DNA from: a virus
Direction: 5' to 3' (one strand)
Virus record (IMG/VR): IMGVR_UViG_3300031720_000002
Span: 2,667 to 66,666 of that record
Length of the DNA stretch: 64,000 nucleotides
This document shows positions 1 through 60,560 of this stretch, one piece after another. A model generated the notes under the pieces. The model searched no databases. It had not been told where the DNA came from and saw only the letters and a program-made list of their open reading frames with translations. Position 1 is the stretch's first letter; each line of letters begins with the position of its first letter. The position numbers were made by a program, and so were the translations under genes.

Positions 1-5
1 AGCTG

Positions 6-467
6 ATGTTCACCATCAAGACGGAGATCCTCGAAGGCACGGACGCCAAGAGGAAGATGACCACGAACCTCACGGTCTCTCCGGAGAACGGCACGGCGCT
101 CGCGATCTTCTTCCAGAACATGGCGGCCATCGGCATCCCGGATTCGTTCTTCGCCCAGGAGCCGCAGCCCGACCAGATCGCGCAGGCCATGATCGGTCGC
201 GAGGTGACCGTCGTCGTCAAGCACGAGACCTGGCAGGGCGTGAAGCGCGGCAAGATCGATCGCTGGCTCAACACGGGTGCTGGCATTCCCGGCGTTCCCA
301 CCGGTCCACTGGCCCCGGGCGCGGTGGTCGGTGCGCCTGGACCTGTGCTGCCGACCTCCAGCTCGTCCGTCGCGGCCGTTCCGACTACGCCTGCGGTACC
401 GACCACTCCGCCCGCCGGCGCCGGTCCGGTGGCTCCGAGCGACGCTCCGCCGCCGCTGCCGATCTGA
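6..467 (+). CDS. ssDNA-binding protein-like (DUF669-like), probably 5'-truncated by the window edge
   Basis: OB-fold-like segment (MIGREVTVVVKHETWQG) followed by a Pro/Ala-rich tail ending PPPLPI; replication-arm context. Confidence 0.55.
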   Translation: MFTIKTEILEGTDAKRKMTTNLTVSPENGTALAIFFQNMAAIGIPDSFFAQEPQPDQIAQAMIGREVTVVVKHETWQGVKRGKIDRWLNTGAGIPGVPTGPLAPGAVVGAPGPVLPTSSSSVAAVPTTPAVPTTPPAGAGPVAPSDAPPPLPI

Positions 468-563
468 CGAACCGTAACTGACGAATTTGTGGTAGGGTAA
501 GTACGAGGGCGGTTGGATCCCCGCCAGCCGCCCTCACTTATGTCCTCATACAGATGGAGACAG

Positions 564-779
564 ATGATGAAACGACAGACACCACTTCACGAGATTCTAC
601 GTCAGCGGCGTGTTGACCTTGTCATCACGCAGCAAAAGCTCGCCGCTAAAATGGGCGTCGCGCAGAGCATGGTCTCTGATTGGGAATCCGGACGTGTTTC
701 CCCTTACTACGATAACATTGTGAAGTGGACGACAGCACTCGGCATCACACTCGTCCCTACCCTCACGGAGTGGCTGTGA
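564..779 (+). CDS. XRE-family HTH transcriptional regulator
   Basis: ITQQKLAAKMGVAQSMVSDWESG HTH signature; GGAG RBS at 556-559; TGGTAGGGT extended -10 at about 490. Confidence 0.85.
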   Translation: MMKRQTPLHEILRQRRVDLVITQQKLAAKMGVAQSMVSDWESGRVSPYYDNIVKWTTALGITLVPTLTEWL

Positions 780-1840
780 CACGTATCGCACTCATCACCA
801 CGACCATCAACGTCCCAACGGTGCTCACCCAGTGGGCCAAGTCAGGAATGATTAGCGATGACATCATCATCGTCGCAGGTGACCAAAAGTCTCCACACCG
901 TGAGATTGTTGACCTACTCGCCGCAATCGAGCGCGAGACTGGCGTCGTTGGGATATACAGCCCACCAAAGATGCAGGACCTCTGGGCTATCTCGGAGAAG
1001 ATCGGCTGGAACTGCATTCAGCGTCGTAACATCGCGCTACTCGAGGCGATGATGTATAACCCCCAGTACATCCTCACGATCGATGACGACAACGCGCCTA
1101 CATCAGGCTCCCAGGTCACACAGCTCGTTGACATCATGGAGCACCGTATCACGGGCTATGAGTCCGCGCACAGTCAGGCCATCAGCACGAACACAGGGTG
1201 GTACAACCCGGGACGACAGTGCCTCACTGATCATCTTCGTCCCGTCGTCCACCGCGGGTTCCCGTTGTCCCAACGGTTCGTCGCGCCGCTCATCACGCAC
1301 ACGAAGATGGCGCCCGTTGGTGTCGCTGCGATGTTGTGGACGGGTGAGCCCGACATCGACGCGGTGGAACGCATCGCGGTGCGACCCAATGTGACGCGCA
1401 TCGGTCGTCCGAACTTCGTTCTCACTCCCGGCACGTGGGCGCCATTCAACACGCAGGCGACGATGGTTCGCGGTGACCTCGCTCCCGCACTGTTCATGTG
1501 GCCCCACGTCGGTCGGTACGACGACATCTGGGCTAGCTATGTCTACCGCAAGGTCGCAGACAAGCGTGGCTACGGTGCGTATTACGGTCACCCCGCGGTG
1601 CACCAGGACCGCAACGAGCACGACCTCGTGAAGGATCTCGAGCAGGAGATCTTCGGAATGCGGTGGAACGAGTCGATCATCCGCCTCATCCAGGACGTGA
1701 ACCTCGATCCCGACGCCGACGTGATTAGCGACGTCACTCGAATCTTCGCCGATCTCGTCATGCTCGCGCATCCTCTTCCCGACGAGACGAAGTACGCGCT
1801 TGGCGCATGGATCGATGATGTGGAGGCCATTAATGGGTAA
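776..1840 (+). CDS. GT75/RGP-STELLO-like protein (NDP-sugar pyranose/furanose mutase-like)
   Basis: Motifs ITTTIN, AGDQKSP, RRNIA, TIDDDN, HRGFP, GEPDIDA, PFNTQ, GRYDDIW, HQDRNEHDLVKDL; GTG start overlaps the HTH stop (GTGA). Confidence 0.75.
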   Translation: MTRIALITTTINVPTVLTQWAKSGMISDDIIIVAGDQKSPHREIVDLLAAIERETGVVGIYSPPKMQDLWAISEKIGWNCIQRRNIALLEAMMYNPQYILTIDDDNAPTSGSQVTQLVDIMEHRITGYESAHSQAISTNTGWYNPGRQCLTDHLRPVVHRGFPLSQRFVAPLITHTKMAPVGVAAMLWTGEPDIDAVERIAVRPNVTRIGRPNFVLTPGTWAPFNTQATMVRGDLAPALFMWPHVGRYDDIWASYVYRKVADKRGYGAYYGHPAVHQDRNEHDLVKDLEQEIFGMRWNESIIRLIQDVNLDPDADVISDVTRIFADLVMLAHPLPDETKYALGAWIDDVEAING

Positions 1841-3152
1841 GATCGTCGGCTACGGTAAGCTCGGGCGCTCGATGCCCCTCACGCTGGAGAAGTGCGCGAA
1901 TCTTGGTGGCGACGTCGAGATGGTCGCAGTGGTGAAGGAGCTCGCACTTCGCCATCCCGACGACACGTTCCTCTTGCTCGGTCGCAACACTGGCGAGATT
2001 CCTACGAAGGTCGGAATGCCGGCGAACGTCGTCAATCCGTGGGCCGAGTGGGGTTGGTCAGAGCGTCTTCTCCGTGAGGGAACACCGATCAGGAAGAAGT
2101 ACGCGATCAACCCGAATGGCTCGAACCTCGCGGTGCAGGGCCACATCGAGATGCGTGAACTCTTCCGTGACATCACCGAAAAGACGTTCGTCAAGTGTGA
2201 TGGTCACGTCTTCTGGGTCGGTCAGCACGGCTCAACGAACACGCCAGTGCCAAAGATCGAGGACATGTCCATCCTCACGAAGCCGCACGACTGGTGCGCG
2301 TACTACGCGTCGCACATTCTCCTGGGCGTCAACGCTTGGCGTGATGCACACCCAGACAAGGACGTCGTCTGGCTCAACGCTGACGCCCGTAACAAGCACA
2401 AGATGCGGGATCTCAAGCACAAGCTCATCAATCCCATCCTCACCCAGTACACCTTCTCCCACAACCTCAAGCACGAGCAGTACGACGGCACGCCGCCCAT
2501 CACTGGCGCTGTGCACAACATCTACTCGCGCCTCGAGGTCAATGGCCTCGCACCCGGGACGCCGTTTGGTGACCTCATTACGTACAACCCATCGCCCAAC
2601 TTCCGCAAGTACCGCTTCGGCATGTTCATCAACGAGGCACGCGCCATTGGCGTGAAGGCGGGCATGGATCGTCTCTCTGTGATGAAACAGTGGGTGCTGC
2701 CGCTCATCGAGAACAACAGCGAGGAGAACCCCCACTGGATTCATGGCACGTGGAGTCCCCAGTCGCAGTCAGAGCTTGGCTTCGAGATCAATCCCGCGCC
2801 GTGGGATCAGTATTATCCGATGCTCAACGACACGTTGTGCACGTTCACGACGCCGTCCAGTGGCTCCCACTGGGCGACTGCAAAGCCGTGGGAAGCGTTC
2901 GCTGGTGGAACGATCTGCTTCTTCCACCCAGACTACGACAAGCAGGACAACATCCTGCATGACGCGCATCCCAACCTCCGTGAGTGGCTGCGCGTGAAGA
3001 CTCCCAAGGATCTCAAGACACGTGTCGCTGCCGTGACGGCCAACGCGTCCACTGCGAGCTGGCTCATTCAGCGACAGCGTGAGCACTTTGTGCGAGCCAT
3101 TGAGGATAAGCGGTATCTCAAGACCATCGAGGAGATGATCTGGAATGGGTAA
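1833..3152 (+). CDS. GT-B-like glycosyltransferase, putative DNA-modifying
   Basis: N-terminal GYGKLGRS...GGDVE; C-terminal YYPML...TTPSSGSHWATAKPWEAFAGGTICFFHPDYD donor-binding-like motif; GGAGG RBS; lies between sugar enzymes and a dNTPase. Confidence 0.6.
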   Translation: MGKIVGYGKLGRSMPLTLEKCANLGGDVEMVAVVKELALRHPDDTFLLLGRNTGEIPTKVGMPANVVNPWAEWGWSERLLREGTPIRKKYAINPNGSNLAVQGHIEMRELFRDITEKTFVKCDGHVFWVGQHGSTNTPVPKIEDMSILTKPHDWCAYYASHILLGVNAWRDAHPDKDVVWLNADARNKHKMRDLKHKLINPILTQYTFSHNLKHEQYDGTPPITGAVHNIYSRLEVNGLAPGTPFGDLITYNPSPNFRKYRFGMFINEARAIGVKAGMDRLSVMKQWVLPLIENNSEENPHWIHGTWSPQSQSELGFEINPAPWDQYYPMLNDTLCTFTTPSSGSHWATAKPWEAFAGGTICFFHPDYDKQDNILHDAHPNLREWLRVKTPKDLKTRVAAVTANASTASWLIQRQREHFVRAIEDKRYLKTIEEMIWNG

Positions 3153-4065
3153 GCGAGCACTCGTGACCGGCGCTGCCGGGTTCGTCGGACGACACATGAC
3201 GAACCACCTTCACAGTCAGGGATGGGACGTCGCACGGTGTGACATCGTTGGTCCAATGGCGTGGACCATGCACGACTTCAACGATGTGACGCGGTGGAAC
3301 GACATCCGCTACGACATCGTCGTCCACTGCGCGGCGGTGGGTGCACATCGCGCCGCCATCGATGGCCAGCCTCACACGTTCGCGAAGAACATGCGACTCG
3401 ACGCCGCGCTCTTCGACTGGGCGATCAAGACGAAGCAGCGTCGCGTCATCTACATCTCGTCCAGTGCGGCATACCCCATCGAGTATCAGAACATCCTCGG
3501 CGGCGATCACGAGATGCGCCTCGAGGAGGACATGATCGACCTCTGGCACCCACGTCTCGCTGATGGCACGTACGGCGTCACGAAGCTGACCGGAGAGCAC
3601 CTCGCTAGAGCCGCTCGAGCCGCCGGCGTACCAGTTACCGTCGTGCGACCGTTCAGTGGCTACGGTGAGGATCAGGGTCCCGATTGGCCGTTCGGAGCGT
3701 TCGTCCAGCGGATCGGCGCCGGCTTCGGTCAGTCGTCCACGAATCCGTTCGTGATCTGGGGCAGCATGAAGCAGCGACGTGACTGGATCCACATCGACGA
3801 CGTCATCCATGGCATGCTCGCCATCGCGGAGTCCAAGACGGAGGATCCCGTCAATCTGTGCACGGGCGTACCCACGTCCATGAAGGACCTCGTCATGATG
3901 ATGGCGAACGTGATGGGCTACGACGAGTTTCACCTCACCGAAGACCGCGACGCTCCGATGGGCGTGTTGAACCGTGTCGGAAGTCCTGACCGATTCTTCG
4001 AGTACTATGAACCAAAGATCACGCTCGAAGAGGGCGTGTACCGAGCGTTGTGGGGCCACAAGTGA
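3145..4065 (+). CDS. NAD-dependent NDP-sugar epimerase/dehydratase (extended SDR)
   Basis: TGAAGFVG Rossmann motif, ISSSAAY, catalytic YGVTK, RDWIHIDD. Confidence 0.92.
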   Translation: MGKRALVTGAAGFVGRHMTNHLHSQGWDVARCDIVGPMAWTMHDFNDVTRWNDIRYDIVVHCAAVGAHRAAIDGQPHTFAKNMRLDAALFDWAIKTKQRRVIYISSSAAYPIEYQNILGGDHEMRLEEDMIDLWHPRLADGTYGVTKLTGEHLARAARAAGVPVTVVRPFSGYGEDQGPDWPFGAFVQRIGAGFGQSSTNPFVIWGSMKQRRDWIHIDDVIHGMLAIAESKTEDPVNLCTGVPTSMKDLVMMMANVMGYDEFHLTEDRDAPMGVLNRVGSPDRFFEYYEPKITLEEGVYRALWGHK

Positions 4066-4067
4066 CG

Positions 4068-4433
4068 ATGGACCGTCTCGAAGAGATGCTCAAGCTGCAG
4101 GACGAACTGCAGGAGCGATACACGGGCACTTCGCCAATCGACCTCGTCGGCGAGGGTCGCAAGGACTACGTGAGGACGATGGTCCTCGCTTGCACGGATG
4201 AACTTCACGAGGCTCTCCGCGAGGTCCCGTGGAAGCCGTGGTCCGGCAACACGCTGTGGGACAAGGACAGCGAGATCAACTTCAAGCTCGAACTCGTCGA
4301 CGCGTTCCACTTCTTCATGAACCTCATGCTCGTCTCGGGCATGACGGCGGACGAGCTCTTCACTGAGTACCTTCGCAAGAACGGGATCAACCACAGTCGC
4401 ATCGATGGCGGCTACTCCAGCCCCACTGGGTGA
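4068..4433 (+). CDS. Dimeric all-alpha dUTPase/dCTPase (MazG superfamily)
   Basis: DELHEALREVPWKPW, ELVDAFHFFMNL, YLRKNGINHSR; alternative GTG start at 4062. Confidence 0.85.
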   Translation: MDRLEEMLKLQDELQERYTGTSPIDLVGEGRKDYVRTMVLACTDELHEALREVPWKPWSGNTLWDKDSEINFKLELVDAFHFFMNLMLVSGMTADELFTEYLRKNGINHSRIDGGYSSPTG

Positions 4434-4454
4434 CAACCCGATACTATCGATCCC

Positions 4455-6101
4455 ATGACTCATCGCTTTGTCGACGCGCTCGGATTCGCGGGCGGATTCA
4501 CCCTGGGTATGGTCCAAGCCGGATTCGAGCTCGTCGGCAAGCGTGAGATGAAGGGTGGTTTCGGTGTCGCCAACTGCGAGGCTAATCGCCATCTGCTGGG
4601 ACAGGGATGGAAGGCTGAGTCAGTTGATCCGACCCAGTGGAGCGTCGTGGACGCTGACGCCGTCACGGGCAACCCACCTTGCTCTGGTTTCTCAGGAATG
4701 TCAGCGAAGCACTTCCGAGGAGCCAACTCTCCCATCAATCACTGCATGTGGGCGTTCGTCGACTACGTCGCCCGCGTGAAGCCGCAGATCGCGGCGTTCG
4801 AGTCAGTGCAACTTGCCTTCACGCGTGAGGACGGCCTCGCCCTCATGCGAGCCCTCCGAACGAAACTGGAGGAAGCGACAGGTGACAGGTGGACGCTCTT
4901 TCACGTTCTACACAACGCATACAGCCTCGGCGGAGTCGCGCATCGCCGACGTTATTTTTGGGTCGCAACTCGCATCCCGTTCGGCATCGAGTGGCCTCAT
5001 CGAGACAAGCTGCCTGTGTTGGACGACGCTATCGGCGACTTGGAACATCAGCCCCAAGGCTGGGCTGCCGCACCTCTTGTGGGCAATCCTTCCTGGTGGG
5101 CCGCACCTCGCACGCGTGACGACCTTCACGTGGACGGGCACGTGTCAGTGCGTGCTCCGCTCGTTCAGCGAGTGGTTGACCTTCTGCAAGGCGTGGAGTG
5201 GAACGGCGGCGAGCACCTTGCTCGACTTGCGCGCCGCTACTATGACACGTACGGACAGTTGCCCGCTTCATGGGCAGCCACGCAGGACAAGGTCGTCGCA
5301 AACGACTTCAACCTCGGATACAACACACCCGTCAGATGGAAGGGCGACGAGCCAGCGCGTGTTATCACGGGAGCAGGTCCGATCGTGGCGTTCCATCCAC
5401 GCCTGCAGCGACCGCTGACGCACCGTGAGGTCGCTCGCGTGATGGGCTTCCCGGACACGTGGCTCATCGACCCGATCAAGAACACACCGGGTCTCGTGAT
5501 GACGTGGGGCAAGGGCATCACGGTCGACTGTGGTCGCTGGATCGGCTCGTGGATCTACGATGCACTGGATGGAGAACCGGGCAAGTACCACGGCGAACGC
5601 ATCGGTGATCGCGAGTTTCTCATCGATACCACATACGCATGGCACTTGAACCTGGTACAGTCGACATTGACGCTCAGAAGATTCCGTAAACTCATTGGAG
5701 GTAACATCATGACCGAGCCTGTTGCGGCTCCCGAGGTTCCCGTCACCGAGGGTGACGAGGCTCCCGTCGCCGAGGCCAGCACGTCGCGCGCCTCGAGTGG
5801 TCGTCCGCGTCCGCAGGCCACGCTCGAGCAGGACGCGAAGGTTCTCGAGTACCTGTCGGCGGAGGAGAACGCCGACGGCAAGACGAAGGCGGAGATCGGC
5901 ACCGCCCTCGAGCTGGCGACGAACAAGGTCTACCTCTCGCTGTGGCGCCTCGGCACGCGTGAGGGCAAGATCCACCGGACGGGCTCTGGCGCGTCCGCGA
6001 AGTGGGTGGCCGGCTCCGCTCCGGAGGTCGCTGATGACGCTGCCGCTCCTGCGGCCGACGTCGAGCAGCCCGCTCCCGCGGAGGAGCACGTCGCCATCTG
6101 A
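4455..6101 (+). CDS. Divergent C5-cytosine DNA methyltransferase homolog with in-frame C-terminal wHTH-like extension
   Basis: Motif IV GNPPCSGFS, VI FESV, VIII HRRRYF, IX LTHREVARVMGFPD, X WGKGI; leaderless start after TACTAT at 4442-4447. Confidence 0.8.
   Translation: MTHRFVDALGFAGGFTLGMVQAGFELVGKREMKGGFGVANCEANRHLLGQGWKAESVDPTQWSVVDADAVTGNPPCSGFSGMSAKHFRGANSPINHCMWAFVDYVARVKPQIAAFESVQLAFTREDGLALMRALRTKLEEATGDRWTLFHVLHNAYSLGGVAHRRRYFWVATRIPFGIEWPHRDKLPVLDDAIGDLEHQPQGWAAAPLVGNPSWWAAPRTRDDLHVDGHVSVRAPLVQRVVDLLQGVEWNGGEHLARLARRYYDTYGQLPASWAATQDKVVANDFNLGYNTPVRWKGDEPARVITGAGPIVAFHPRLQRPLTHREVARVMGFPDTWLIDPIKNTPGLVMTWGKGITVDCGRWIGSWIYDALDGEPGKYHGERIGDREFLIDTTYAWHLNLVQSTLTLRRFRKLIGGNIMTEPVAAPEVPVTEGDEAPVAEASTSRASSGRPRPQATLEQDAKVLEYLSAEENADGKTKAEIGTALELATNKVYLSLWRLGTREGKIHRTGSGASAKWVAGSAPEVADDAAAPAADVEQPAPAEEHVAI
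5709..6101 (+). CDS. Small acidic wHTH-like DNA-binding protein (internal in-frame start)
   Basis: GGAGG at 5697-5701 then ATG 5709; TGGTACAGT extended -10 at about 5653; GRPRP and KVLEYL...KTKAEIGTAL...KVYLSLWRL...GKI. Confidence 0.6.
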   Translation: MTEPVAAPEVPVTEGDEAPVAEASTSRASSGRPRPQATLEQDAKVLEYLSAEENADGKTKAEIGTALELATNKVYLSLWRLGTREGKIHRTGSGASAKWVAGSAPEVADDAAAPAADVEQPAPAEEHVAI

Positions 6102-6145
6102 CGGGTGACCCCCACCCTCGATGGGATCGCCGACGCGCGCCTCCC

Positions 6146-6182
6146 ACACTGCCCGAGTCTCGTTCAGAGACTCGGGCAGTGT
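6146..6182 (+). terminator. Hairpin terminator closing the modification operon
   Basis: Perfect 16-bp inverted repeat ACACTGCCCGAGTCTC / GAGACTCGGGCAGTGT. Confidence 0.75.
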
Positions 6183-6253
6183 CGTGTTTAGGATCGGTTA
6201 CCCATCAGTACACTACGTGATACAATCGCGCTAGTCACCCAGTGGGAGGCACC

Positions 6254-7198
6254 ATGCCGATCAACATGAATAGCCCGTACATCCGGGCAGAGGTGGTGCC
6301 CCAGTCGATCAACGACATGGGAACACGCCTCAAAGCCCACTATGGTGTGGGCGCCGATTCGTTCGGCAGCAAGGGCAACGAGTATCACGACTACGGGTAC
6401 CATCGTTCACGTAAGTGGATCCTCCTCGACCCGGACAGCCGCTACGGAACGAGCGACTACTCCGTCCAGACGTCACGCGACAACGGCGGCGACGAGGACT
6501 GGAACCGCGCGTTCGACTTCGTGCCGGGCGTGTGGGGCACGCAAGAAAACCGCCGACGCATGATCGAGATCACGACGCGCGTGTACAACGCAGCGAAGGC
6601 CCGTGATCCTCGCCTCAAGAACATGCGCGAGTTCGCCGGCACACTCGACGGCAAGAACGTCATCACCTTCAACTGCGCGGATGGCTCGCACAAGAGCCCA
6701 TTCGACATCACACACCTGGATCACTGTCACGGGTCCATGTACACAGACACCGCCGACGCTGACCACAACGGCATCGTCGACATCATGCTCGGAGAGGACG
6801 ACGACATGGGCGCTTCGCAGCTCGGCCCGTTCCAGCTGAACGCGGATCAGACGGCACTCACGCTTCCGCCCGTAGAGGCCGGTATCGCCGACCCTCGCCA
6901 GGTTTGGCTGAACGTGGGTGCGGATAGTTACGGACACCTGTACGCGCTCCGTATCTGGGCGTCGAACGGCGATGGCCACTGGTTCGCGGTGGACAGCAAG
7001 AACGCCGCGGACACGCAGCGTGCGGACGGTCTCTACAAGATCGACAATGGTGTCGCGCTGTCCATCCAGCTGACGAAGGGTGTGCGCATCCTCACCATCT
7101 CGCGCAAGGCGATCGATCCGGCTGGCCACGTCATCGACGCGTCGACCGATCACCCTGCCTTCGCCGGCTCGATCAGCGTCTGCTTCGAGCGCAAGTAA
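6254..7198 (+). CDS. Endolysin (Zn-peptidase-like N-terminal domain plus C-terminal putative binding domain)
   Basis: GYHRSR...DYSVQ...AFDF...HLDHCHGS putative Zn ligands; EDDDM linker; GGGAGG RBS; TGATACAAT -10 at about 6218; followed by membrane proteins. Confidence 0.7.
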   Translation: MPINMNSPYIRAEVVPQSINDMGTRLKAHYGVGADSFGSKGNEYHDYGYHRSRKWILLDPDSRYGTSDYSVQTSRDNGGDEDWNRAFDFVPGVWGTQENRRRMIEITTRVYNAAKARDPRLKNMREFAGTLDGKNVITFNCADGSHKSPFDITHLDHCHGSMYTDTADADHNGIVDIMLGEDDDMGASQLGPFQLNADQTALTLPPVEAGIADPRQVWLNVGADSYGHLYALRIWASNGDGHWFAVDSKNAADTQRADGLYKIDNGVALSIQLTKGVRILTISRKAIDPAGHVIDASTDHPAFAGSISVCFERK

Positions 7199-7201
7199 GC
7201 C

Positions 7202-7471
7202 GTGAACATCCCACTCGAGTTGTTCGTCAAAGAGTGGGGCCCTAGTGGGTTACTCGCGCTCTTCATCCTCCTTCTCATGTTTGGAAAGATCGTTCCCATC
7301 AGTGTGCACAAGGATGTGCGCCAGCAGCGGGATGAGTGGAAGAGGACCGCCGAGGAAGCCCTCAAGCAAAACACCGTGCTACTCGAGACGGCGCACACTG
7401 CGAACGCGACGTTTAAAGCCATCAAGGCTGTCGCCACACAGGAACCCGAGGCTCATGAGTCTGCTCACTAG
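7202..7471 (+). CDS. Lysis-cassette membrane protein (one TM plus coiled coil)
   Basis: GLLALFILLLMFGKIVP TM then a charged helix; directly after the endolysin. Confidence 0.7.
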   Translation: MNIPLELFVKEWGPSGLLALFILLLMFGKIVPISVHKDVRQQRDEWKRTAEEALKQNTVLLETAHTANATFKAIKAVATQEPEAHESAH

Positions 7472-7646
7472 GTGGTTGCGACGGCGGGGGCCATCACAGG
7501 AACTTGAGGCGGCGCAAGAAGCGCATCGAAACGTCGTCTCGCAGCGAGAAGAAGTCGCAGAAGTCACCACATCACTGCGAGAGAGTGTTCGTCGACCGAA
7601 CAACCTCGCGCCGCTCATCGAAAAGGCACTACGGAGCACGAGGTAA
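7455..7646 (+). CDS. Small lysis-cassette protein
   Basis: MSLLTRWLRRR...NNLAPLIEKAL; overlaps or abuts both neighbours. Confidence 0.55.
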   Translation: MSLLTRWLRRRGPSQELEAAQEAHRNVVSQREEVAEVTTSLRESVRRPNNLAPLIEKALRSTR

Positions 7647-8979: not shown

Positions 8980-9061
8980 TGCGAGATCGGCTACTTGGTG
9001 AAGCCGCCGGATGAGCCACCACAGCCATTCGGATACGATGGTTCGACTCCATCTCTCGCAG
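8980..9061 (+). ncRNA. tRNA-like RNA 2 (enlarged anticodon arm)
   Basis: Acceptor TGCGAGA/TCTCGCA, D arm GGCT-ACTTGGTGA-AGCC, stem CCGGA/TTCGG around a 16-nt loop, T arm GATGG-TTCGACT-CCATC. Confidence 0.75.
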
Positions 9062-9097
9062 CGCGCAACACAGCGCACGACGAAGGGACGAAAGATC

Positions 9098-10180
9098 ATG
9101 ACTCAGAGCGTCACGCTCGACGAGGGCGGGAAGAGCGTCCAGTTCACTGACCGTCAGGTTCCGTGGATGAAGCTGGGCAACATCACGGAGGGCGCGTTGA
9201 CCGCGCAGGAAGCGGCGCAGGCAGGTGGCCTGAACTTCACGGTCTCGCTGCACAACGTCCACTTCACCTGCACGGACGAGGACGAGCAGAAGCTAGACGC
9301 GGACTACGTGCGGACGGAGATCATCAAGATCATGGCGCAGCCCATCTTCGACGACGAGAAGACGAAGAAGCTGTGGGAACTGATGGCCTGCACGCGCAAG
9401 ATGACGAATCGCCGCATCGCCGTGCGGGACGACGACCTCACGCCTCTCTCCATCGTCTCCGACGGCTACCCGGTGTTGCAGTATCCGGAGGCGTTCGACT
9501 TCATGGACGGCGCGATCGCCAAGTTCACGAACGAGGGAGCGCGGTACGTCGCCGCGGGTGCCCTCAAGGGCGGCAAGCAGGGATTCATGGTCGTGCGACT
9601 CCCGGAGTCGCTGCAGATCAACGTGCTCGACGGCGGTGACCCGCACGAGATGTTCGCGGTCCTCCGCACGTCGATGGACCTCACTCGCGCGGTCGAGATC
9701 ATGATGATGCCGCTGCGCGGGCTGTGCATGAACCAGCTCACGCTGACGTCCTTCTCTGCCGGCGTGCCGAACCGCTGGGCGGTCCGTCACACCAGCACGA
9801 TGAAGGACAAGCTGATCGAGGCCCAGTCGTCGATGACCAAGATGGACGCGTACGTCAAGCGATACAACGAGATCGTCAAGCGACTGGCCGACATCAAGCT
9901 GAACGACGAGAAGGCCAAGCTGATCCTGGGCCGCGCGTTCGGTCGCATGCAGATGAAGGGCAAGGAGCAGCTGATCGACGCGCTGATCGAGAAGCGGAAG
10001 AACTCGCCTCTCGTCGGATTCGCCGGCACTGGGTGGGGTCTGGTCAACGCTGTGAGCGATCACTTCGACTGGCGGGCGGGCGGCACTCCCGAGTCGAAGT
10101 TCCTGAACGCGCTGCAGGGTCCCACGCACAAGTACATCAACCTGGTCACCACGCATATTCTCCGCACAATGGGCAACTGA
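9098..10180 (+). CDS. DUF932 family phage/plasmid protein
   Basis: PWMKLG...AAQAGGLNFTV, IVSDGYPVLQY, AGALKGGKQ, PLRGLCMNQL, VRHTS, GTGWGLVNAV. Confidence 0.85.
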   Translation: MTQSVTLDEGGKSVQFTDRQVPWMKLGNITEGALTAQEAAQAGGLNFTVSLHNVHFTCTDEDEQKLDADYVRTEIIKIMAQPIFDDEKTKKLWELMACTRKMTNRRIAVRDDDLTPLSIVSDGYPVLQYPEAFDFMDGAIAKFTNEGARYVAAGALKGGKQGFMVVRLPESLQINVLDGGDPHEMFAVLRTSMDLTRAVEIMMMPLRGLCMNQLTLTSFSAGVPNRWAVRHTSTMKDKLIEAQSSMTKMDAYVKRYNEIVKRLADIKLNDEKAKLILGRAFGRMQMKGKEQLIDALIEKRKNSPLVGFAGTGWGLVNAVSDHFDWRAGGTPESKFLNALQGPTHKYINLVTTHILRTMGN

Positions 10181-13063: not shown

Positions 13064-13623
13064 ATCGACCTCGCGATCCAGAACTGATACGTGTAGTAGG
13101 GCTGATTGAACGAATCCACCCAGGTGGGTCGCCAGTCTGTCTCGTGGAACATCTCAGAGATGCCCCACAGATCCCAGCCCCAGTAGTGTTCGTAGTTCTT
13201 CTCCGTGTCGAACTCGCCCAGTGGTGTGGTGACGCAGATCCACTTGAATCGCTCAGACGCAGCACGGAGGAAGTCCTCAGGATCGTCCAAGTGCTCGAGT
13301 GTCTCAGAGCAGATGAGGAGATCGCCACTCACCTTGCGCACGTTCTTCGCGATGTCACCAACGAAGTGAAGATGCTCAGCCGGGACGAGATCACCGAAGT
13401 GCCGTGTCTTCACGCCAGAGATCTCACGCAGGATTCGTCCATCACCACACGAAAGATCATACGCACGATCGATGTCACCGTGCAGTTTGAGGAACTCGTT
13501 GAGGCGAGTGATCGTCCAGTTCACACGGTTCGTATGCTCTTCCCATTGCGATGAATCATACGGCTTACTGTAGATCTCTCGCAGGGTTGCGGCGTCGTGC
13601 ACGTGACGCAGACGTTTGATCAC
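13054..13623 (-). CDS. Class I SAM-dependent methyltransferase
   Basis: YDLSCGDG, ICSETLEHLDDP. Confidence 0.85.
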   Translation of the reverse strand: MIKRLRHVHDAATLREIYSKPYDSSQWEEHTNRVNWTITRLNEFLKLHGDIDRAYDLSCGDGRILREISGVKTRHFGDLVPAEHLHFVGDIAKNVRKVSGDLLICSETLEHLDDPEDFLRAASERFKWICVTTPLGEFDTEKNYEHYWGWDLWGISEMFHETDWRPTWVDSFNQPYYTYQFWIARSMWL

Positions 13624-14243
13624 TTCGTGCCTGCCGGCACAGCGTGGATCACCTGGAACATGCCCGTCGTCTCGTGTCGCACGACGTTGAAACCCGCCTG
13701 CACCATGAGCGCGCGGTAGCCGTCCTGGTCCCACGCCCAGGCGTGACACTCGTCGTGCGATCCCGCGTGCTCAGTGAACGGCGATGAAGCGACGAGCTGC
13801 ACACCATCGCCACGATCACGGATCTTCTTGACGAAGCCATGAGGATCCGTGAGGTGTTCGAGGACCTCGGTCATCACGTACACGTCAGCATCACCAATGC
13901 CGTCAAACTCGTTGACGAAGTCGAGCCCGTATGCCTTGACGTTTCGCTCGTCCCAACCCTGCTTATTGCTCGGCTGGAAATCGAAGCCGTAAGCGTTCAC
14001 CCAGGGGAGACGACTGATGAGTGACAGGAGGCCACCATCGCCACAGCCCAGGTCGATGACAGTGCATGGCACAGTGACACGAGTCTCCACACGATCGACA
14101 GCCTCGCGCACGAAGTCCGCGGCGAGCTGGAGGCGACCCTGATGGATACCCTGCTCGAGGTGTGGTGCACGCTCACGGTGCTCATGGAACGCGTACGTCG
14201 AGACGTGCGCCACGTCGTCCACAAAGAGCTTGTACTCAGCCAC
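13620..14243 (-). CDS. Class I SAM-dependent methyltransferase
   Basis: VIDLGCGDGG, MTEVLEHLTDP. Confidence 0.88.
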   Translation of the reverse strand: MAEYKLFVDDVAHVSTYAFHEHRERAPHLEQGIHQGRLQLAADFVREAVDRVETRVTVPCTVIDLGCGDGGLLSLISRLPWVNAYGFDFQPSNKQGWDERNVKAYGLDFVNEFDGIGDADVYVMTEVLEHLTDPHGFVKKIRDRGDGVQLVASSPFTEHAGSHDECHAWAWDQDGYRALMVQAGFNVVRHETTGMFQVIHAVPAGTK

Positions 14244-31145: not shown

Positions 31146-33554
31146 CTAGAACTTGTCGAGATCCGCGAGCTCTGACTCGAGCGTCGCGTACTTCAGCTTG
31201 GGCTTCTTCGTCGCTGCAGAGATGCCGCACGCCATGTCGAGCGCAGCGAGTTCATCGTCCAGACTCATCGTCGTCCGGTCCACGACACCAGCCGCGACGA
31301 GCGAGACCTGCTTACCCTGCGCCAGTGCCGTGCCCACGCGCGGGATCGGGAAGCCCGGAACATTCACGGCTAGAAGTGCAACCATCCGAAGATTGCCACT
31401 AATGCGACGCCAGTCACCAGACAAAGCAGAAGCACGGAGAGCATGCATGTGCTCACTGGAAGTGCCGGGCCGTACGGCGCCCGCAATCCAAATGCCATGC
31501 TCGTCAGTTCCAGCCGTGACATCCGCGACTGCCGTGCCAGTGTCGCCGTAGTGATCGATCGCCCGGGCGAGAGTGACGCCACGAGTTGGCGCGTGCGACG
31601 TGCCGAGCGTGATCTGACCGACCGCGACACTGTGACCCTCCGCAGTGAGCACCTCGCCAGTCGTGAAGTACGAGTAGTCCGGCTCAGCAGGCGGCGTCAC
31701 GCAAGTGTCAGCGAACCCAGTGTGGCATGTTCCCCAACATGCAGCGTGGCCGAACACGCGGCCGTCCTCGGTGACGGTGACCGGTGTCGGGCCATACAGC
31801 TCAGGCTTGCCAAACCACTCGAGCGGAGCGGTAGCAGGGATAGCTGCGGCAACCATCGACTCTGTCTGGAGCGTGAACGCTGGTGCGATCTGGCCGGCAT
31901 CGGTGAAGTGTTGCGCCATGTGGTCGTATGCGTACTTCAGCTGCGTCGTCGTCAGTCCGAACGCGCGTCCCGAGTTGATCGAGCCGATGTGCTTCGCGCA
32001 GGCGACGAGCGATGCGCGGCCAGGCTGACCGTCCTCGTCGATCTCGTGGTGCAGGAAGCGGCACTGCTGACGAGAGACGACATCGTCGATGCCATCCACG
32101 TACGCGAATGCAGCAGCAGCGACGAGACCGTCCAGTTCACCTTCACCCAGTCGCAGCTCGTGCTCGATCGATTTCCACGGCGCATCAGTGACGGAAGCGA
32201 CGACAGCGGAACTCTCGCCCTTCTTCGTCAGCTTGATGGCAGCCTCAACCAACGCAGGGAACGCAACCAGCGTCGCACCACGGAGACGGCCCTTGTGGAA
32301 GATCGTCTTGGTCGGCTTCGCAAAGGGGTCGTTGTCCTCGCCCAACGCGAACTCAAGCTCGACGTCAGCGTCGGTCACCTGATCCGGGTCGACAGAGACA
32401 CCGCCCGCGAAGCCATCGCGGACCTGACGAAACGCACGGAGACCGTCCGGATCGTTGATGTTGAATCGACCCTTGCCCATGATGACTCGCGGGTTCTCAG
32501 GCGAGCGCCACATCTTATCGATGCGACCAGCAGTCACGCTGCCCTTGTGCTCGCCGAGGTTCGACTGCGCCCACTGGAACGGGTGGATGATCGATTCCGT
32601 GTCCTCCCAGGTGAGTGACCCGCCCGAGAACATCCGCTGATCGCCAGTGTCCGTGTCCTCGACGACGAGTGGCCCTTCCCAGCCGCCATCGTACTCGCCG
32701 AGCTCGGCTTCGAGATCCACAGCCGCGTCAGCCGTCACGACATCCACCTCCAGATTCTTCTTGTCGCTGCTGCTTTCCTTGCCACCGGCGGCGACATACG
32801 CAACAGTGTCAGTACTCGCAGTGCCATCATACAACGGAAAGTCAGTCACCTCCCCGCCGAAGGCAACACGCACATGGTCGAAGCGGATGGGACCTTCACG
32901 GTCCTTCAGCTTCTTCACCGTGCCTGAGTCTGACGTGTAGGCGAGCGTAATGTGCGGAATCCACGGCTCGTACTGTGGCGGGTAGTAGTCGCCCAAGTAG
33001 TCACTCGCAATGTTGTCCGCCATCATGTGCGGCTTCTTGAGTTCGTCACCCGAAACGAGAAGGACGACGCACGGCTCCTTCTCTTGGTCTTGGTTGAATG
33101 CTGCCACGCCGAAGCCATCTGCATCAATGATGGGAACGTTCCTCGACATATGACGCACAGACTCGATGATGTCGTTCCGCATCATGGGCGTGATCTTCGC
33201 TGCCTCGCCCAAGTAGCAAAGCGTGAGGTGAAGATCCTCGTCGTCCTCACCACCATCGACGACAAGACGGTTCATGTCGTCCTCACTGGGCAGCAAGGCG
33301 ATCATCGCGCCCGTCTGCTCATCAGCTTCCTCAGCCGCTTCAGACGCAGCGTCCGCAGTGAGGCCGAGTGCAGTGTAATCCCCATTGAGAACACTCTCAA
33401 CCTCAGCGTCGGTAAGTTCACGAGAACCAGACGTGTCTGGTGCCTCGTAGTCACCCTGTTCGTACTGAGCGAATGTGACACCCTGATCCGCCAAGCCAAC
33501 GGGCACGAAAGCCATGTCTGAGCCATTCGCCCAGGGAGGAGTCCATTTTGCCAT
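31146..33554 (-). CDS. 2H phosphoesterase (Acb1/2'-5' RNA ligase-like) fused to capsid maturation protease
   Basis: HLTLCYLG and PHITLAY 2H motifs; GGVSVD...LRGATLVAFPA protease-like; GRVFGHAACW...SGDWR...VNVPGFP C-terminal domain. Confidence 0.8.
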   Translation of the reverse strand: MAKWTPPWANGSDMAFVPVGLADQGVTFAQYEQGDYEAPDTSGSRELTDAEVESVLNGDYTALGLTADAASEAAEEADEQTGAMIALLPSEDDMNRLVVDGGEDDEDLHLTLCYLGEAAKITPMMRNDIIESVRHMSRNVPIIDADGFGVAAFNQDQEKEPCVVLLVSGDELKKPHMMADNIASDYLGDYYPPQYEPWIPHITLAYTSDSGTVKKLKDREGPIRFDHVRVAFGGEVTDFPLYDGTASTDTVAYVAAGGKESSSDKKNLEVDVVTADAAVDLEAELGEYDGGWEGPLVVEDTDTGDQRMFSGGSLTWEDTESIIHPFQWAQSNLGEHKGSVTAGRIDKMWRSPENPRVIMGKGRFNINDPDGLRAFRQVRDGFAGGVSVDPDQVTDADVELEFALGEDNDPFAKPTKTIFHKGRLRGATLVAFPALVEAAIKLTKKGESSAVVASVTDAPWKSIEHELRLGEGELDGLVAAAAFAYVDGIDDVVSRQQCRFLHHEIDEDGQPGRASLVACAKHIGSINSGRAFGLTTTQLKYAYDHMAQHFTDAGQIAPAFTLQTESMVAAAIPATAPLEWFGKPELYGPTPVTVTEDGRVFGHAACWGTCHTGFADTCVTPPAEPDYSYFTTGEVLTAEGHSVAVGQITLGTSHAPTRGVTLARAIDHYGDTGTAVADVTAGTDEHGIWIAGAVRPGTSSEHMHALRASALSGDWRRISGNLRMVALLAVNVPGFPIPRVGTALAQGKQVSLVAAGVVDRTTMSLDDELAALDMACGISAATKKPKLKYATLESELADLDKF

Positions 33555-52730: not shown

Positions 52731-54230
52731 TTACAGGTTCATGTTAGGCCACATCGGGATTTGAATCAACTTACGACCCATCCAGCGAATCCCCGCGGAG
52801 GGTTTCGTCTGCCATCCACGCTCCCGCAACTGCCGTCCGAACTCCGGCATGTCCATGACATCCTTCTTCGCCTGGGCATCGCCGTGGTTCTTAACGTAGT
52901 TCACATACTGCGTGTGGAGGTCCGATGCCTTGACGAAGTGACTCGCGGGCGTGGTCGAGATCGGTGCGTCCTCGAGGTACCCGTCCTCATACATGAACTG
53001 CAAGAACTCCTCGAGGTTCGTCAACGACCCAGTGGCGTTCATCGTTGCGAGGATGTACTTCTGCGGGATGTGATCCACGTTTGCCATCATCGTGTCCTGC
53101 GCACCCTCGACGAGTCGCGCCAGGATCGCTCGCAGACACTCCTCATCGTTCAAGAATCGCTGCTTGATGCGCGGGTCTTCTTGTCCCGGTGCAAGCGACC
53201 GATCAAAGGTCACCACCACGATGCGTCGCCGGATCGCGGGATCCGCGCCATTGATCTTTGGCATCTCGTTCGTAATGAGCATCGGCGTGAACCTCGGTTG
53301 CGCGTTCACCACTCCCGCGTAGTGATCACGGTATGGCAGTGGGTCACCACCCGTGAGCCGCTTGATCTGGTCCGCGTGAAGATGCCAGCCCTTGCTTGCC
53401 TCACTCGCCCAGGCCAGTCGCGTGTACATCGCCTTGACGAGGTCGGGCCGTGGCTTGTCATCCATGTTGCCGCGGAAGACCGACGAGCCAATGGCGCAGG
53501 CGTACGACCCCAGGATCTTATGCACCGCGGCCATGAGTTGGGACTTACCTGACGTTGTGCCGCCCAGGATAATGGGAAACGTCCGCGTGTGATTGCCCGC
53601 CATGAGACATCGCCCCAAGAGAGCGAAGACGAACCGCTGATCCAGCTCATCCGGGAGGAACGTCTTGAGGAAGAGGTCCAGCTCCTTACTCTTCGCCTTG
53701 GGATCATACGCCACGGTGCACATCCGTGTGTTGCGATCCGCGGGTGTCGCCTTCCTGATCTCACCTCCCAGGAGATCCACCACACCATTCTCCACCACGA
53801 GATCCGTGCCAACGGCATCCAATTCTTCCTCGCGTACGTGGATCGAGGGGTGTTCCTTCGCGGCCTCCAAGATCTTCTTTCTCGCCGCGACGGACTCCAT
53901 GCCTTGGATGAAGCGAAGCTGCCGACCACGCGGGGTGTCCGGGTCGTTCGCCTCCCCATCCATCTCGAGTGCCTCTTCACGCATGTCATCCAGGACGCGC
54001 ATCGTCAACGCGTACGCCTTGAGGTTCTCACTAGTGTCCGGCTCCAGGATCTTCCCGTTCCACAAGAGCCACTGTTGTCGCTCCACGTCGTACCGCAGCA
54101 GCGGTCCATACGTCTGCACGTAGCGACGTCCCACACCAGTGTCGGTGTTGCGTAGCTCTACGACGTCCGTCCCAGCGATGAGTTGATCCACCGTGGGAAG
54201 GACGGCTGTGCTCGCTTCGTTATCGGTCAC
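52731..54230 (-). CDS. D5/P4-type SF3 helicase
   Basis: NTDTGVGRRY D5_N, ENGVVDL, GGTTSGKS Walker A, IKRLTGGD, ITNEMP, AIRRRI. Confidence 0.92.
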   Translation of the reverse strand: MTDNEASTAVLPTVDQLIAGTDVVELRNTDTGVGRRYVQTYGPLLRYDVERQQWLLWNGKILEPDTSENLKAYALTMRVLDDMREEALEMDGEANDPDTPRGRQLRFIQGMESVAARKKILEAAKEHPSIHVREEELDAVGTDLVVENGVVDLLGGEIRKATPADRNTRMCTVAYDPKAKSKELDLFLKTFLPDELDQRFVFALLGRCLMAGNHTRTFPIILGGTTSGKSQLMAAVHKILGSYACAIGSSVFRGNMDDKPRPDLVKAMYTRLAWASEASKGWHLHADQIKRLTGGDPLPYRDHYAGVVNAQPRFTPMLITNEMPKINGADPAIRRRIVVVTFDRSLAPGQEDPRIKQRFLNDEECLRAILARLVEGAQDTMMANVDHIPQKYILATMNATGSLTNLEEFLQFMYEDGYLEDAPISTTPASHFVKASDLHTQYVNYVKNHGDAQAKKDVMDMPEFGRQLRERGWQTKPSAGIRWMGRKLIQIPMWPNMNL

Positions 54231-55266: not shown

Positions 55267-55300
55267 CGAACAACTCCTCGTGCGGCTCACGCGGACAATG

Positions 55301-57780: not shown

Positions 57781-58683
57781 ATGACCATCTTCGTCCTTGA
57801 GGGACCTGATGGCGCAGGGAAGTCGTACCTTGCGCAGCAGATTCAGCAAGAGCTGCCCGACACCCTCATCCTTCGGCAGGGACCACCCACGCCGGGCGAG
57901 GATCTGCTCGAGAAGTACCTCCGACCCATCGAGAACATCTTCGTCAATGGGACGCGACAAACATCTCACGTCGTGATGGACCGTTGGCACGTGGGTGAGC
58001 TGGTGTATGGTCCACTGCTGCGCGGCAAGTCGATGCTGACACGCGCACAGATGAACTACATCGACATGGTCCTCGGCACGTTCGATGCGCGATTCTACTT
58101 CATGTCTGCGTCGCTGGACACACTCCTCAAGCGGTACGACAAGCGCGGTGATGAGCTCATCAGTCGTGACCAGATCGAGCACATCAAGGACGAATACACA
58201 GATCTTCTCGTGCCGCTTTACCACTGGGAAGTCGTGTCGTTCATGCGTCTTCCATTCGTGATGCCACCCGTGCGTCACGTACAGGCGCCCAACGCGGGTC
58301 GCTACATCGGTCCACCCGGACCTAAGGTCCTCCTACTGGGCGACGTTCGCGGCAACGAGAAGTTCACGTTCCCGTTCGTGCCATACCAGGCGACATCTGG
58401 TCACTGGCTCATGACCGCGATGGCGGACGCGCACGTGGATCACATGCTCGTCGGCGTCATGAACGCCTGTGAGATGACACCCGACGAACTCAGCACCCAG
58501 TGGGACGCGCTTGGGCAGCCACCCGTCATCACGCTCGGTCGCAACGCACAACGAGCATGGAAGACCGTGGGTGACTGGAACCCAAACAAGGATCACTACC
58601 TCCATCACCCCCAATATGCGAGGAGGTTCAATCACAGGAGCACGTTCGAGTACGGACAGACGATCAAGGATGTGATGAAGTAA
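57781..58683 (+). CDS. dNMP kinase fused to a UDG-superfamily domain
   Basis: EGPDGAGKS P-loop, DRWHVGELVYG; C-terminal KVLLLGD...PFVP...SGHWL...VITLGRNA...HHPQY. Confidence 0.8.
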   Translation: MTIFVLEGPDGAGKSYLAQQIQQELPDTLILRQGPPTPGEDLLEKYLRPIENIFVNGTRQTSHVVMDRWHVGELVYGPLLRGKSMLTRAQMNYIDMVLGTFDARFYFMSASLDTLLKRYDKRGDELISRDQIEHIKDEYTDLLVPLYHWEVVSFMRLPFVMPPVRHVQAPNAGRYIGPPGPKVLLLGDVRGNEKFTFPFVPYQATSGHWLMTAMADAHVDHMLVGVMNACEMTPDELSTQWDALGQPPVITLGRNAQRAWKTVGDWNPNKDHYLHHPQYARRFNHRSTFEYGQTIKDVMK

Positions 58684-59216: not shown

Positions 59217-59220
59217 TCGT

Positions 59221-60559: not shown

Positions 60560-60560
60560 A

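Follow-up and report, generated by a model that had tools for sequence, protein, structure and literature searches.

One question raised by a 64,000-nucleotide stretch of viral DNA (hereafter the window), which covers bases 2667-66666 of the 66,666-bp IMG/VR virus record IMGVR_UViG_3300031720_000002, is whether its genes for nucleotide metabolism and sugar transfer together place a glycosylated cytosine in the DNA of the phage. The source is an uncultured phage from soil with a genome of ~66.7 kb, and the record was rated complete by CheckV. The answer that we favour, and to which we give slightly better than even chances, is that one replication module builds glycosylated 5-hydroxymethylcytosine (5hmC) DNA in two stages. 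The identities of the genes, their folds and active-site residues, their contiguity and their conservation with swapping of the sugar cassette were observed directly. The genes in question are the following (positions in the window):

776-1840, + strand: homolog of the GT75 nucleoside diphosphate (NDP)-sugar pyranose/furanose mutases (MtdL/UAM-like, Gln subfamily; Pfam RGP, E 1.6e-11).
1800 or 1833-3152, + strand: GT-B glycosyltransferase (GT) of 439-450 aa, a predicted DNA glycosyltransferase (AlphaFold model).
3145-4065, + strand: extended short-chain dehydrogenase/reductase (SDR), NDP-sugar-modifying (Pfam Epimerase, 1.9e-36; PHROG nucleotide-sugar epimerase, 1.1e-51).
4050-4433, + strand: small all-alpha dNTP pyrophosphatase (dNTPase), related to T4 gp56 (Pfam dUTPase_2, 2.3e-14; PHROG NTP pyrophosphohydrolase, 2.8e-22).
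4455-6101, + strand: C5-cytosine methyltransferase homolog with a C-terminal tail (Pfam DNA_methylase, PF00145, 5.5e-17, residues 5-363; HaeIII, 2.6e-8).
57781-58683, + strand: P-loop nucleotide kinase (YorR/dTMP-kinase-like) with a divergent uracil-DNA glycosylase (UDG)-superfamily fold (PHROG, PDB, Pfam and Atlas matches).
58683-59216, + strand: conserved 177-aa protein between the kinase and the next gene (only PHROG 1342, unknown function, 5.4e-6).
59221-60108, + strand: thymidylate synthase (TS)-family enzyme, predicted dCMP hydroxymethylase, that is, 5-hydroxymethyl-dCMP (5hm-dCMP) synthase (PF00303, E 6.8e-19, above the cut-off).
59864-60559, + strand: dCMP deaminase (Pfam dCMP_cyt_deam_1, 1.7e-14, residues 80-202; PHROG dCMP deaminase, 2.4e-36).
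60534-62405, + strand: PolA, family A DNA polymerase with 3'-5' exonuclease (Pfam DNA_pol_A, 1.2e-60; DNA_pol_A_exo1, 6.3e-10).
62945-64000, + strand: N-terminal 352 codons of an SNF2 helicase whose remainder lies at record bases 1-708 (L001 1-708); it joins both blocks of genes.

Taken together, the Pfam, PHROG and NCBIfam scans of the window proteins bore out the gene list of a preliminary description, which had been made from the sequence alone. The operon that it placed at 776-6101, consisting of a GT75-like protein, a GT-B transferase, an SDR, a dNTPase and a C5-methyltransferase homolog, was recovered by Pfam and AlphaFold as five co-oriented genes on the + strand. The first four share overlaps of 8, 8 and 16 nt, a single gap of 21 nt precedes the fifth, and the five are read as one operon. 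The second block that it described (57781-60559), with a kinase-UDG fusion, an Asp-type TS homolog and a dCMP deaminase by PolA, is also real, its UDG part being weakly supported. The same description had regarded the pathway as split over two loci, a view that did not hold. The open reading frame (ORF) at 62945-64000 is open at the end of the window, its frame being resumed at base 1 of the record to give a 587-aa SNF2 helicase, and tblastn of the window proteins located this gene whole, between both blocks, in 8 related contigs. Hence, the two blocks form a single locus: they lie ~5 kb apart on the circular map and belong to one co-directional module for replication and nucleotide metabolism. 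Since the record is cut inside the SNF2 gene and a terminal repeat of 10-500 bases is absent from it, the genome is circular or circularly permuted, though its class in the collection is linear. The interval between the SNF2 and GT75 genes holds a PD-(D/E)XK nuclease, an AAA_24 RecA-like protein, a DUF669 protein and a small helix-turn-helix (HTH) protein.

With regard to the modified base, the TS homolog was compared with the PDB, and 122 TS-family sequences were retrieved at E <= 0.001, the best being the CMP hydroxymethylase MilA (9.1e-19). The protein was aligned with E. coli ThyA, T4 gp42 and RB69 gp48 (public records), and is ~20-24% identical to references of these types. The catalytic Cys (ThyA Cys146) is kept (DYPCT; APCH in ThyA, FMCT in T4). 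ThyA Asn177 is replaced by Asp (GLPYD; GLPFN in ThyA, GFRND in T4) and Leu143 is also replaced by Asp (KHDYPC; ALAPC in ThyA, SDFMC in T4, LEYPC in RB69), while Asp169 is retained (RSND, as in T4; RSQN in RB69 gp48), so that the test for a 5-hydroxy-dCMP synthase failed. RB69 gp48 carries Glu, Asn and Asp at positions 143, 169 and 177. According to PMC13326640, the change of Asn177 to Asp selects dCMP over dUMP, that of Leu143 to Asp or Glu admits water and goes with a non-methyl product, and the flavin-dependent 5-hydroxy-dCMP synthases are told by Asn in place of Asp169, which every verified enzyme of this kind has. Because the TS homolog matches gp42 at all three diagnostic residues, the best reading of its sequence is that the predicted product is 5hm-dCMP and not 5-hydroxy-dCMP. 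The residue pattern of gp42 recurs in the TS homologs of 6/6 related IMG/VR contigs that reach the gene, and in the phages DSL-LC01, Kurnik and Sixama, which are described below.

The remaining genes of this block are consistent with such a route. The kinase half of the 57781-58683 product matches thymidylate kinase in PHROG (2.4e-16) and YorR in the PDB (2axp, 3.8e-8, residues 1-143). Its C-terminal half gave a Pfam UDG match of E 0.013 and 16 bits, below the 24.3 cut-off, and an Atlas structure aligned with archaeal UDG-superfamily proteins at a template modelling (TM) score of 0.74, which weakly suggests a UDG-superfamily fold. Homologs of the adjoining 177-aa protein, 55-63% identical and in the same position, occur in four related contigs (L002, L003, L004 and L015). 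The deaminase ORF overlaps the 3' end of the TS gene (59864-60108) by up to 245 nt, its true start being uncertain; TS/deaminase overlaps of ~125 nt occur in the relatives L002 and L003. The dNTPase aligned with T4 gp56 by BLASTP (37% identity over the C-terminal 71 aa, pairwise E 1e-13). Neither a second ThyA nor any ThyX is encoded by the phage. Counterparts of all five T4 functions are present, namely the TS homolog, the kinase, the gp56-like dNTPase, the deaminase and a GT-B protein resembling T4 beta-glucosyltransferase (BGT), and the gene set is best read as a T4-like pre-replicative route to 5hm-dCTP. The proposal of the preliminary description that a modified dCTP is made before replication is retained on the strength of this T4-type set; as to the product, it is narrowed to 5hm-dCMP, and 5-hydroxy-dCMP is set aside by the diagnostic residues as interpreted in PMC13326640.

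As regards the sugar, the GTG start of the GT75 homolog at 776 agrees with the conserved N-termini of its relatives. An AlphaFold (AF2) model of this protein was obtained from 10 homologs, with a predicted local distance difference test score (pLDDT) of 88.9. Foldseek matched the model with MtdL (E 5.6e-28, TM 0.85) and rice UAM2 (1.9e-14). In VIA, MtdL was found at Z 41.9 (343/354 residues, rmsd 2.6, 27% identity) and rice UAM2 at Z 28.6, the next unrelated GT-A structure reaching 15.9. A profile search against the PDB again gave MtdL (E 1.5e-44), now with a residue alignment, and the GT-A domain plus the GT75 core and helix domains were matched over the full length of the mutase. The DDD motif of MtdL (Asp109-111) corresponds to D103-D104-D105, and MtdL Arg159, Asp195 and Asp260 correspond to R160, D193 and D250; each of these residues is invariant in 10/10 phage and 80/80 cellular relatives. 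R247, Q227 and R279 (MtdL Arg257, Gln229 and Arg289) are invariant as well, H282 (MtdL His292) is kept in 75/80 cellular relatives and in at least 90% of the phage set, and MtdL Ser228 is Thr in the phage mutase. The roles of these residues, including those of Arg159 as the self-glycosylated nucleophile and of Arg257 in binding the beta-phosphate, are those given in PMC9937993. On the basis of the model, the product of 776-1840 is predicted to be a metal-dependent, flavin-free pyranose/furanose mutase. The family comprises 2,340 homologs in metagenomes, many of them on contigs of ~60-67 kb.

The positions that govern the choice of base fully match neither MtdL (GDP) nor the plant RGPs (UDP). 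MtdL Thr13 corresponds to Thr9, Asn42 to Lys38 and Ser86 to Cys/Ser, and the Ser86-Asp87 pair of MtdL (Asp at 86 in RGPs) is represented by Cys/Ser followed by Ile/Val in the phage mutases. These N-terminal residues were mapped through the structural alignment, in which the numbering is shifted by a constant +4; in a phmmer search of the N-terminal 115 residues against the PDB the base-binding region was not aligned. Because the base-choice positions match neither reference, nucleotide and sugar specificity cannot be transferred from MtdL or the RGPs, and the candidate sugars are arabinofuranose (Araf), galactofuranose (Galf) and fucofuranose (Fucf). The preliminary description had proposed a self-made sugar, possibly Araf. 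The presence of a GT75 mutase in the operon agrees with the self-made sugar; a plant UDP-arabinose mutase is not the closest relative, MtdL being closer, and Araf is only one of the candidates.

GT75 proteins with the same Gln-type signature were also observed in no fewer than 80 assemblies of bacteria and archaea, at 30-39% identity and with the catalytic Arg and the DDD motif invariant; the phyla include Patescibacteria, Gammaproteobacteria, Binatia, Acidobacteriota and Planctomycetota. As far as our searches show, this subfamily is uncharacterised in the literature covered.

The SDR encoded at 3145-4065 has intact GxxGxxG and YxxxK motifs, and its best PDB matches are a UDP-GlcA 4-epimerase (6zl6, 9.1e-17) and a GDP-6-deoxy-4-hexulose reductase (2pk3, 4.2e-15). 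Its SSSAAY stretch was compared with GalE-type epimerases. Judged from these sequence features the enzyme is probably, with low certainty, a 4-epimerase-type supplier of the pyranose. GDP-L-fucose synthase was considered and rejected: the NCBIfam score was 71 bits against a cut-off of 500, and the SDR is not a member of that family.

The GT-B protein is strongly conserved, with a mean column identity of 62% across 13 sequences, and its AF2 model (pLDDT 80.7) has the two-Rossmann GT-B fold. The closest solved structure was T4 BGT by two methods: it was the top match in Foldseek (1nzd, E 1.2e-8) and in VIA (Z 22.3, 319/351 residues, rmsd 3.8), where BshA (20.2), T4 alpha-glucosyltransferase (AGT; 18.8) and the HY126 phage DNA GT (18.3) came next. 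In the viral structure library BFVD, the second match, which comes from a metagenome, bears the name 'DNA beta-glucosyltransferase' (E 9.1e-20). The family comprises 565 proteins, none of them named, and many lie on contigs of ~60-67 kb. A search of one genome per species in 185,579 species returned 72 pattern matches, none of which was confirmed, and gave no prophage or host clue. On the evidence of its modelled fold, the protein fits a phage DNA glycosyltransferase; action on 5hmC in duplex DNA is predicted from its gene context. Kinship with the glycosyltransferase of DSL-LC01 or with its 329-aa neighbour was tried and rejected (hhalign probabilities of 0.5% and 0.3%).

The neighbourhood of these genes was then compared among relatives, a check for co-occurrence that the preliminary description had proposed. 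By tblastn of the window proteins, 13 distinct IMG/VR contigs with relatives at 30-85% identity were found to keep the same gene order: kinase fusion, unknown, TS homolog, deaminase, PolA, unknown, SNF2, nuclease, AAA_24, DUF669, (HTH), mutase plus GT-B, SDR, dNTPase and methyltransferase homolog. When only the contigs reaching each position were counted, the mutase was present in 12/12, the SDR in 11/12 (missing in L013), the dNTPase in 11/11, the methyltransferase homolog in 10/10 and the TS homolog in 6/6. The GT-B gene precedes the mutase gene in L009-L013.

More distant relatives share the backbone and differ in the sugar cassette. DSL-LC01 (an Actinomycetia phage from a lake metagenome assembly) and the isolated phages Kurnik (Micrococcus) and Sixama (Gordonia) resemble the window in having a kinase, TS homolog, deaminase, PolA, resolvase, helicase, nuclease, RecA-like protein, one or more GTs, a MazG-like dNTPase and a methyltransferase of the same clade, with the same TS signature and the same Lys in motif X of the methyltransferase. 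Identities to the window proteins are 29-41%, and neither a GT75 mutase nor the 450-aa GT-B is present. In DSL-LC01 the slot is taken by another GT and a flavin UDP-galactopyranose mutase (Pfam GLF, 5e-30), after which come MazG and the methyltransferase homolog. In Kurnik two ~250-aa GTs are accompanied by MazG and the methyltransferase homolog. Sixama has a single GT of 416 aa, likewise with MazG and the methyltransferase homolog, but its kinase, TS homolog and deaminase genes lie in another part of the genome. The DNA chemistry of these three phages was not reported in the literature searched. That one slot in related backbones holds two unrelated pyranose/furanose mutases, the GT75 and the flavin enzyme, is the strongest contextual argument for a furanose donor with a DNA-linked function.

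The host is probably actinobacterial, because the PolA matches (1,447 records; best ~41% identity) are mostly from phages of Mycobacterium, Microbacterium, Arthrobacter and Gordonia, the relatives of the TS and methyltransferase homologs come from actinophages, and the G+C content is 56-64%.

From these data a pathway can be proposed in which all substrates and products, the DNA target, the modified base and the identity of the sugar are predicted. In the first stage, modelled on T4 and preceding replication, the gp56-like dNTPase would take dCTP to dCMP, which would be hydroxymethylated by the TS homolog; the phage kinase and the host NDP kinase would then yield 5hm-dCTP for incorporation by PolA, and the dCMP deaminase would supply dUMP to the host thymidylate synthase. 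In the second stage, after replication, the SDR, probably a 4-epimerase, would make an NDP-pyranose that is absent or scarce in the host. The GT75 mutase would contract this pyranose to an NDP-furanose without flavin, via the conserved Arg, and the BGT-like GT-B protein would move the furanose onto the 5-CH2OH group of duplex DNA.

The position of the methyltransferase homolog in this scheme is less clear. The METHYLTRANSFERASE homolog (4455-6101) keeps motif IV (PPCSGFS), the Glu of motif VI (FESV, with ESV for ENV) and motifs VIII and IX; the motifs read were PPCSGFS, FESV, HRRRYF, LTHREVARVMGF and WGKGITV. Motif X has GK, not GN, so that the test for the Gly-Asn pair failed: WGKG aligns with FGNS of E. 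coli Dcm, which is motif X of that enzyme, and the position of HhaI Asn304 is occupied by Lys. Motif X lies 20 residues past motif IX in the phage homolog and 22 in Dcm. The GK pair is found in the window protein, in 9 aligned IMG/VR homologs and in Kurnik, DSL-LC01 and Sixama, and this Lys-type clade is an uncharacterised enzyme group. Of 12 aligned phage homologs, 6 have the tail (about residues 400-548); Kurnik and DSL-LC01 lack it. No Pfam family matched the tail; at window 5700-6101 it consists of a low-complexity acidic part and then a stretch that resembles a winged helix by eye only. A further or alternative C5 chemistry, as suggested for it in the preliminary description, is a candidate role. 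The gene belongs to the conserved module, and it is strictly associated with hydroxymethylase-type TS genes in four lineages.

Because this association lacks an explanation, two further ideas have to be entertained, one of them being the uracil derivative considered below. The other, which is rather unlikely, is that the homolog performs a second C5 chemistry and is not a plain methylase; together with GT75-dependent furanosylation there would be two hypermodifications, possibly of both pyrimidines. In one form of this idea the enzyme might put a non-methyl group from an anionic analogue of S-adenosylmethionine (SAM) on free cytosines, and in the other its Cys-C6 attack might activate 5hmC for substitution. 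Identity with the carboxymethyltransferase CmoX, which uses carboxy-SAM (Cx-SAM), was examined separately. In PMC12783734, Arg350 of CmoX, at the position of HhaI Asn304, binds the carboxyl group of Cx-SAM and mirrors the engineered N374K change of M.MpeI, and CmoX is recognised by an SPPC motif, by Arg350 and usually by a neighbouring CmoA. The window protein has NPPC and Lys at these positions, and the Cx-SAM synthase CmoA was not found, TIGR00740 giving no match at E <= 1 across the 66.7-kb record; assignment as a Cx-SAM-using CmoX is unsupported.

Several observations weigh against the proposed pathway. The Mn-binding His287 of MtdL is Gln277 in the phage mutase, and PMC9937993 ties the loss of this His and of Arg257 to the inactive AtRGP5. 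Because this Gln is invariant in 10/10 phage and 80/80 cellular relatives, the Gln-type GT75 proteins are a distinct conserved subfamily, as judged from their sequences, and not a decayed copy. In the cyanophage S-T4 (a Synechococcus phage; L023 7001-7861) a GT75 homolog of 32% identity, annotated as a membrane/hypothetical protein, is surrounded by heptose-pathway, cytidylyltransferase, fucosyltransferase and epimerase genes, that is, by a surface-glycan-type and not a DNA-type cluster. The SDR is missing in L013, and a different SDR (28% identity) is found in L015. For the GT-B protein there was no Pfam (E <= 0.01), PHROG or NCBIfam match, its family profile found nothing better than E 0.21 among the PDB sequences, and hhalign aligned it with T4 BGT only locally (E 5.9e-4, 29% probability). 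By sequence, the protein could not be assigned to the T4 BGT family, with no significant match to any DNA glycosyltransferase, and in structure T4 BGT is ahead of BshA and similar small-molecule GT4 enzymes by ~2 Z units. The dNTPase is nearest to the dimeric dUTPases by Pfam and PDB, its use of dCTP being predicted. Full replacement of cytosine would leave the conserved methyltransferase homolog without an obvious substrate. Finally, the modification is predicted from genes alone, in this phage and its relatives alike.

Some of these points lead to other explanations. The sugar cassette (mutase, GT-B and SDR) could act on virion proteins or on a host envelope glycan, with the TS homolog giving plain 5hmC or being unrelated. 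Actinophage GTs are in fact known to glycosylate virion proteins, and the gene neighbours in S-T4, the spread of the 80 cellular mutase relatives over diverse bacteria and archaea and the many GT4 enzymes for small molecules and lipids within 2-4 Z units of T4 BGT all fit this explanation. We nevertheless consider it improbable: the cassette lies on the replication strand between the recombination genes and the dNTPase and methyltransferase genes, far from the structural genes; GTs occupy the same slot in four phage lineages, all with a hydroxymethylase-type TS; the GT-B family was not found in the 185,579 species genomes; and T4 BGT ranks first among the structures matched by the GT-B protein.

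If the cassette does act on DNA, the base may still differ from 5hmC. One possibility, to which we give a low probability, is a uracil derivative: 5hm-dCMP would be deaminated to 5hm-dUMP, 5-hydroxymethyluracil (5hmU) would replace thymine and be glycosylated as in base J, and cytosine would remain free for the C5-methyltransferase homolog, which would thereby gain a substrate. The overlap of the TS and deaminase ORFs here and in relatives, the lack of a dTMP-forming ThyA or ThyX in the phage and the likeness of the dNTPase to dimeric dUTPases (Pfam, PDB) would agree with this. T4, however, has a dCMP deaminase beside a complete 5hmC pathway (genes 42, b-gt and 56 were seen in the T4 record), the use of 5hm-dCMP by the deaminase is only supposed, and known 5hmU phages keep an Asn-type enzyme acting on dUMP. 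Still less probable, and in our view quite doubtful, is that the TS homolog makes 5-methyl-dCMP or 5-hydroxy-dCMP, the DNA carrying 5-methylcytosine or an O-glycosylated 5-hydroxycytosine as in RB69 and RL38J1. In favour of this, the product call depends on three residues whose calibration in PMC13326640 comes largely from Straboviridae enzymes, with a few others added, and the window TS is distant from the reference enzymes (the ~20-24% identity given above). Against it, the window enzyme and every relative checked retain Asp169, a position at which the verified 5-hydroxycytosine synthases in that source all have Asn; position 143 is Asp, the hydroxymethylase state; and the best PDB match is a CMP hydroxymethylase.

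The surroundings of the module were also inspected. Just upstream of the sugar operon lies one further small gene:

513-779, + strand (record bases 3179-3445): small HTH_3 DNA-binding protein (Pfam HTH_3, E 1.2e-10).

Two related contigs, L003/L016 and L004/L014, carry weak homologs of this protein in the corresponding position. A scan of positions 1-7600 for promoters and terminators was uninformative, with a single promoter-like site where 1.5 were expected and 4 terminator-like sites where 3.5 were, and megablast of window 700-6200 against 50,697 phage records returned no match. Among sequencing runs, matches came from 2 entries in 2 studies, both of them assembled contigs and one possibly the source of the record. 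Directly after the methyltransferase homolog, window 6242-7198 encodes a 318-aa protein with several His-rich stretches, a homolog of which (48% identity) was found in one related contig only (L003/L016). It was considered as a dioxygenase or a peptidase, had no family match and was left out of the module. Downstream of the module, window 9011-10180 encodes a DUF932 protein (E 3.8e-30) that is kept in 8 distinct related contigs (L003/L016, L007, L009, L011, L012, L013 and L015 being listed). A Prim-Pol (E 3.5e-20) plus D5_N (E 3.4e-14) primase-helicase is encoded on the - strand at window 52731-55290, just upstream of the module. Two further - strand genes lie outside the module: 13620-14243 encodes another class I SAM-dependent methyltransferase (Methyltransf_23, E 5.6e-12), and 31146-33554 an 802-aa protein whose residues 105-227 resemble Acb1/2H phosphoesterases (E 4e-6 for Pfam Acb1, a score at the cut-off).

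Glycosylated hydroxymethylpyrimidines are a main means by which phages escape restriction and CRISPR nucleases, and the sugar decides which defences still see the DNA. If the proposed pathway is true, a clade abundant in metagenomes adds furanosyl-5hmC by way of a flavin-free GT75 mutase, and T4-type cytosine replacement extends to probable actinophages with swappable sugar cassettes. In the literature searched, which left most subscription journals outside its scope, nothing was found that joins GT75, RGP or arabinopyranose mutase to phage or DNA modification, and on UDP-galactopyranose mutase together with hypermodification only PMC13326640 was found. Comparable systems do exist, whereas the preliminary description, made without searches, knew of no characterised actinophage system with this combination. 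Phage GT and epimerase pairs act on 5hmC, the activity of the GT depending on its partner epimerase, as reported in bioRxiv 10.1101/2023.12.21.572611, and in the Rhizobium phage RL38J1 a phage UDP-galactopyranose mutase feeds the glycosylation of 5-hydroxycytosine, according to PMC13326640.

A close parallel is the glucosyl-hmC pathway of T4 (gp42, gp1 kinase, gp56 dCTPase, Cd deaminase and BGT), every function of which has a counterpart in the window phage. In contrast to T4, the window phage has an actinophage-like backbone and a family A polymerase; its kinase resembles YorR, not gp1, and carries a fused UDG-type domain; and its sugar donor would be remade by the SDR and the mutase, whereas T4 uses host UDP-glucose. 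A C5-methyltransferase homolog is added, and by sequence the GT-B protein could not be placed in the family of T4 BGT. RL38J1, RB69 and DLP3, whose DNA carries glycosylated 5-hydroxycytosine, resemble the window in their dCMP-type TS homolog, thymidylate-kinase-like kinase, GT-B enzyme and phage-made sugar nucleotide, and YorR is the Foldseek match of the accessory nucleotide kinase gp78 of DLP3 (Table 1), all as given in PMC13326640. They differ in that their TS homologs have Asn in place of Asp169, use flavin and form 5-hydroxy-dCMP, whereas the window enzyme keeps Asp169; the mutase of RL38J1 is a flavin enzyme, the window mutase being of the metal-dependent GT75 type, and RB69 and DLP3 obtain UDP-Araf from ribulose 5-phosphate without a mutase (same source).

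As to the individual enzymes, MtdL (the GDP-sugar pyranose mutase of A201A biosynthesis) and the plant RGP/UAM proteins, all of CAZy family GT75, share the fold of the window mutase over its whole length and its catalytic residues. The window mutase differs from them in the Gln at the position of His287, in Cys/Ser and Ile/Val at that of Ser86-Asp87 and in its context, an operon for phage DNA metabolism. CmoX and M.MpeI N374K, as described in PMC12783734, resemble the methyltransferase homolog in that the Asn of motif X is replaced by a basic residue (Arg350 and Lys, respectively; Lys in the window), and CmoX differs from it in that the window protein has NPPC, Lys and ESV instead of ENV in motif VI, with no CmoA homolog found in the genome. 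The module is set apart from the known systems by its Gln-type GT75 mutase, its orphan BGT-like transferase family, its UDG-fused kinase and its Lys-type methyltransferase homolog.

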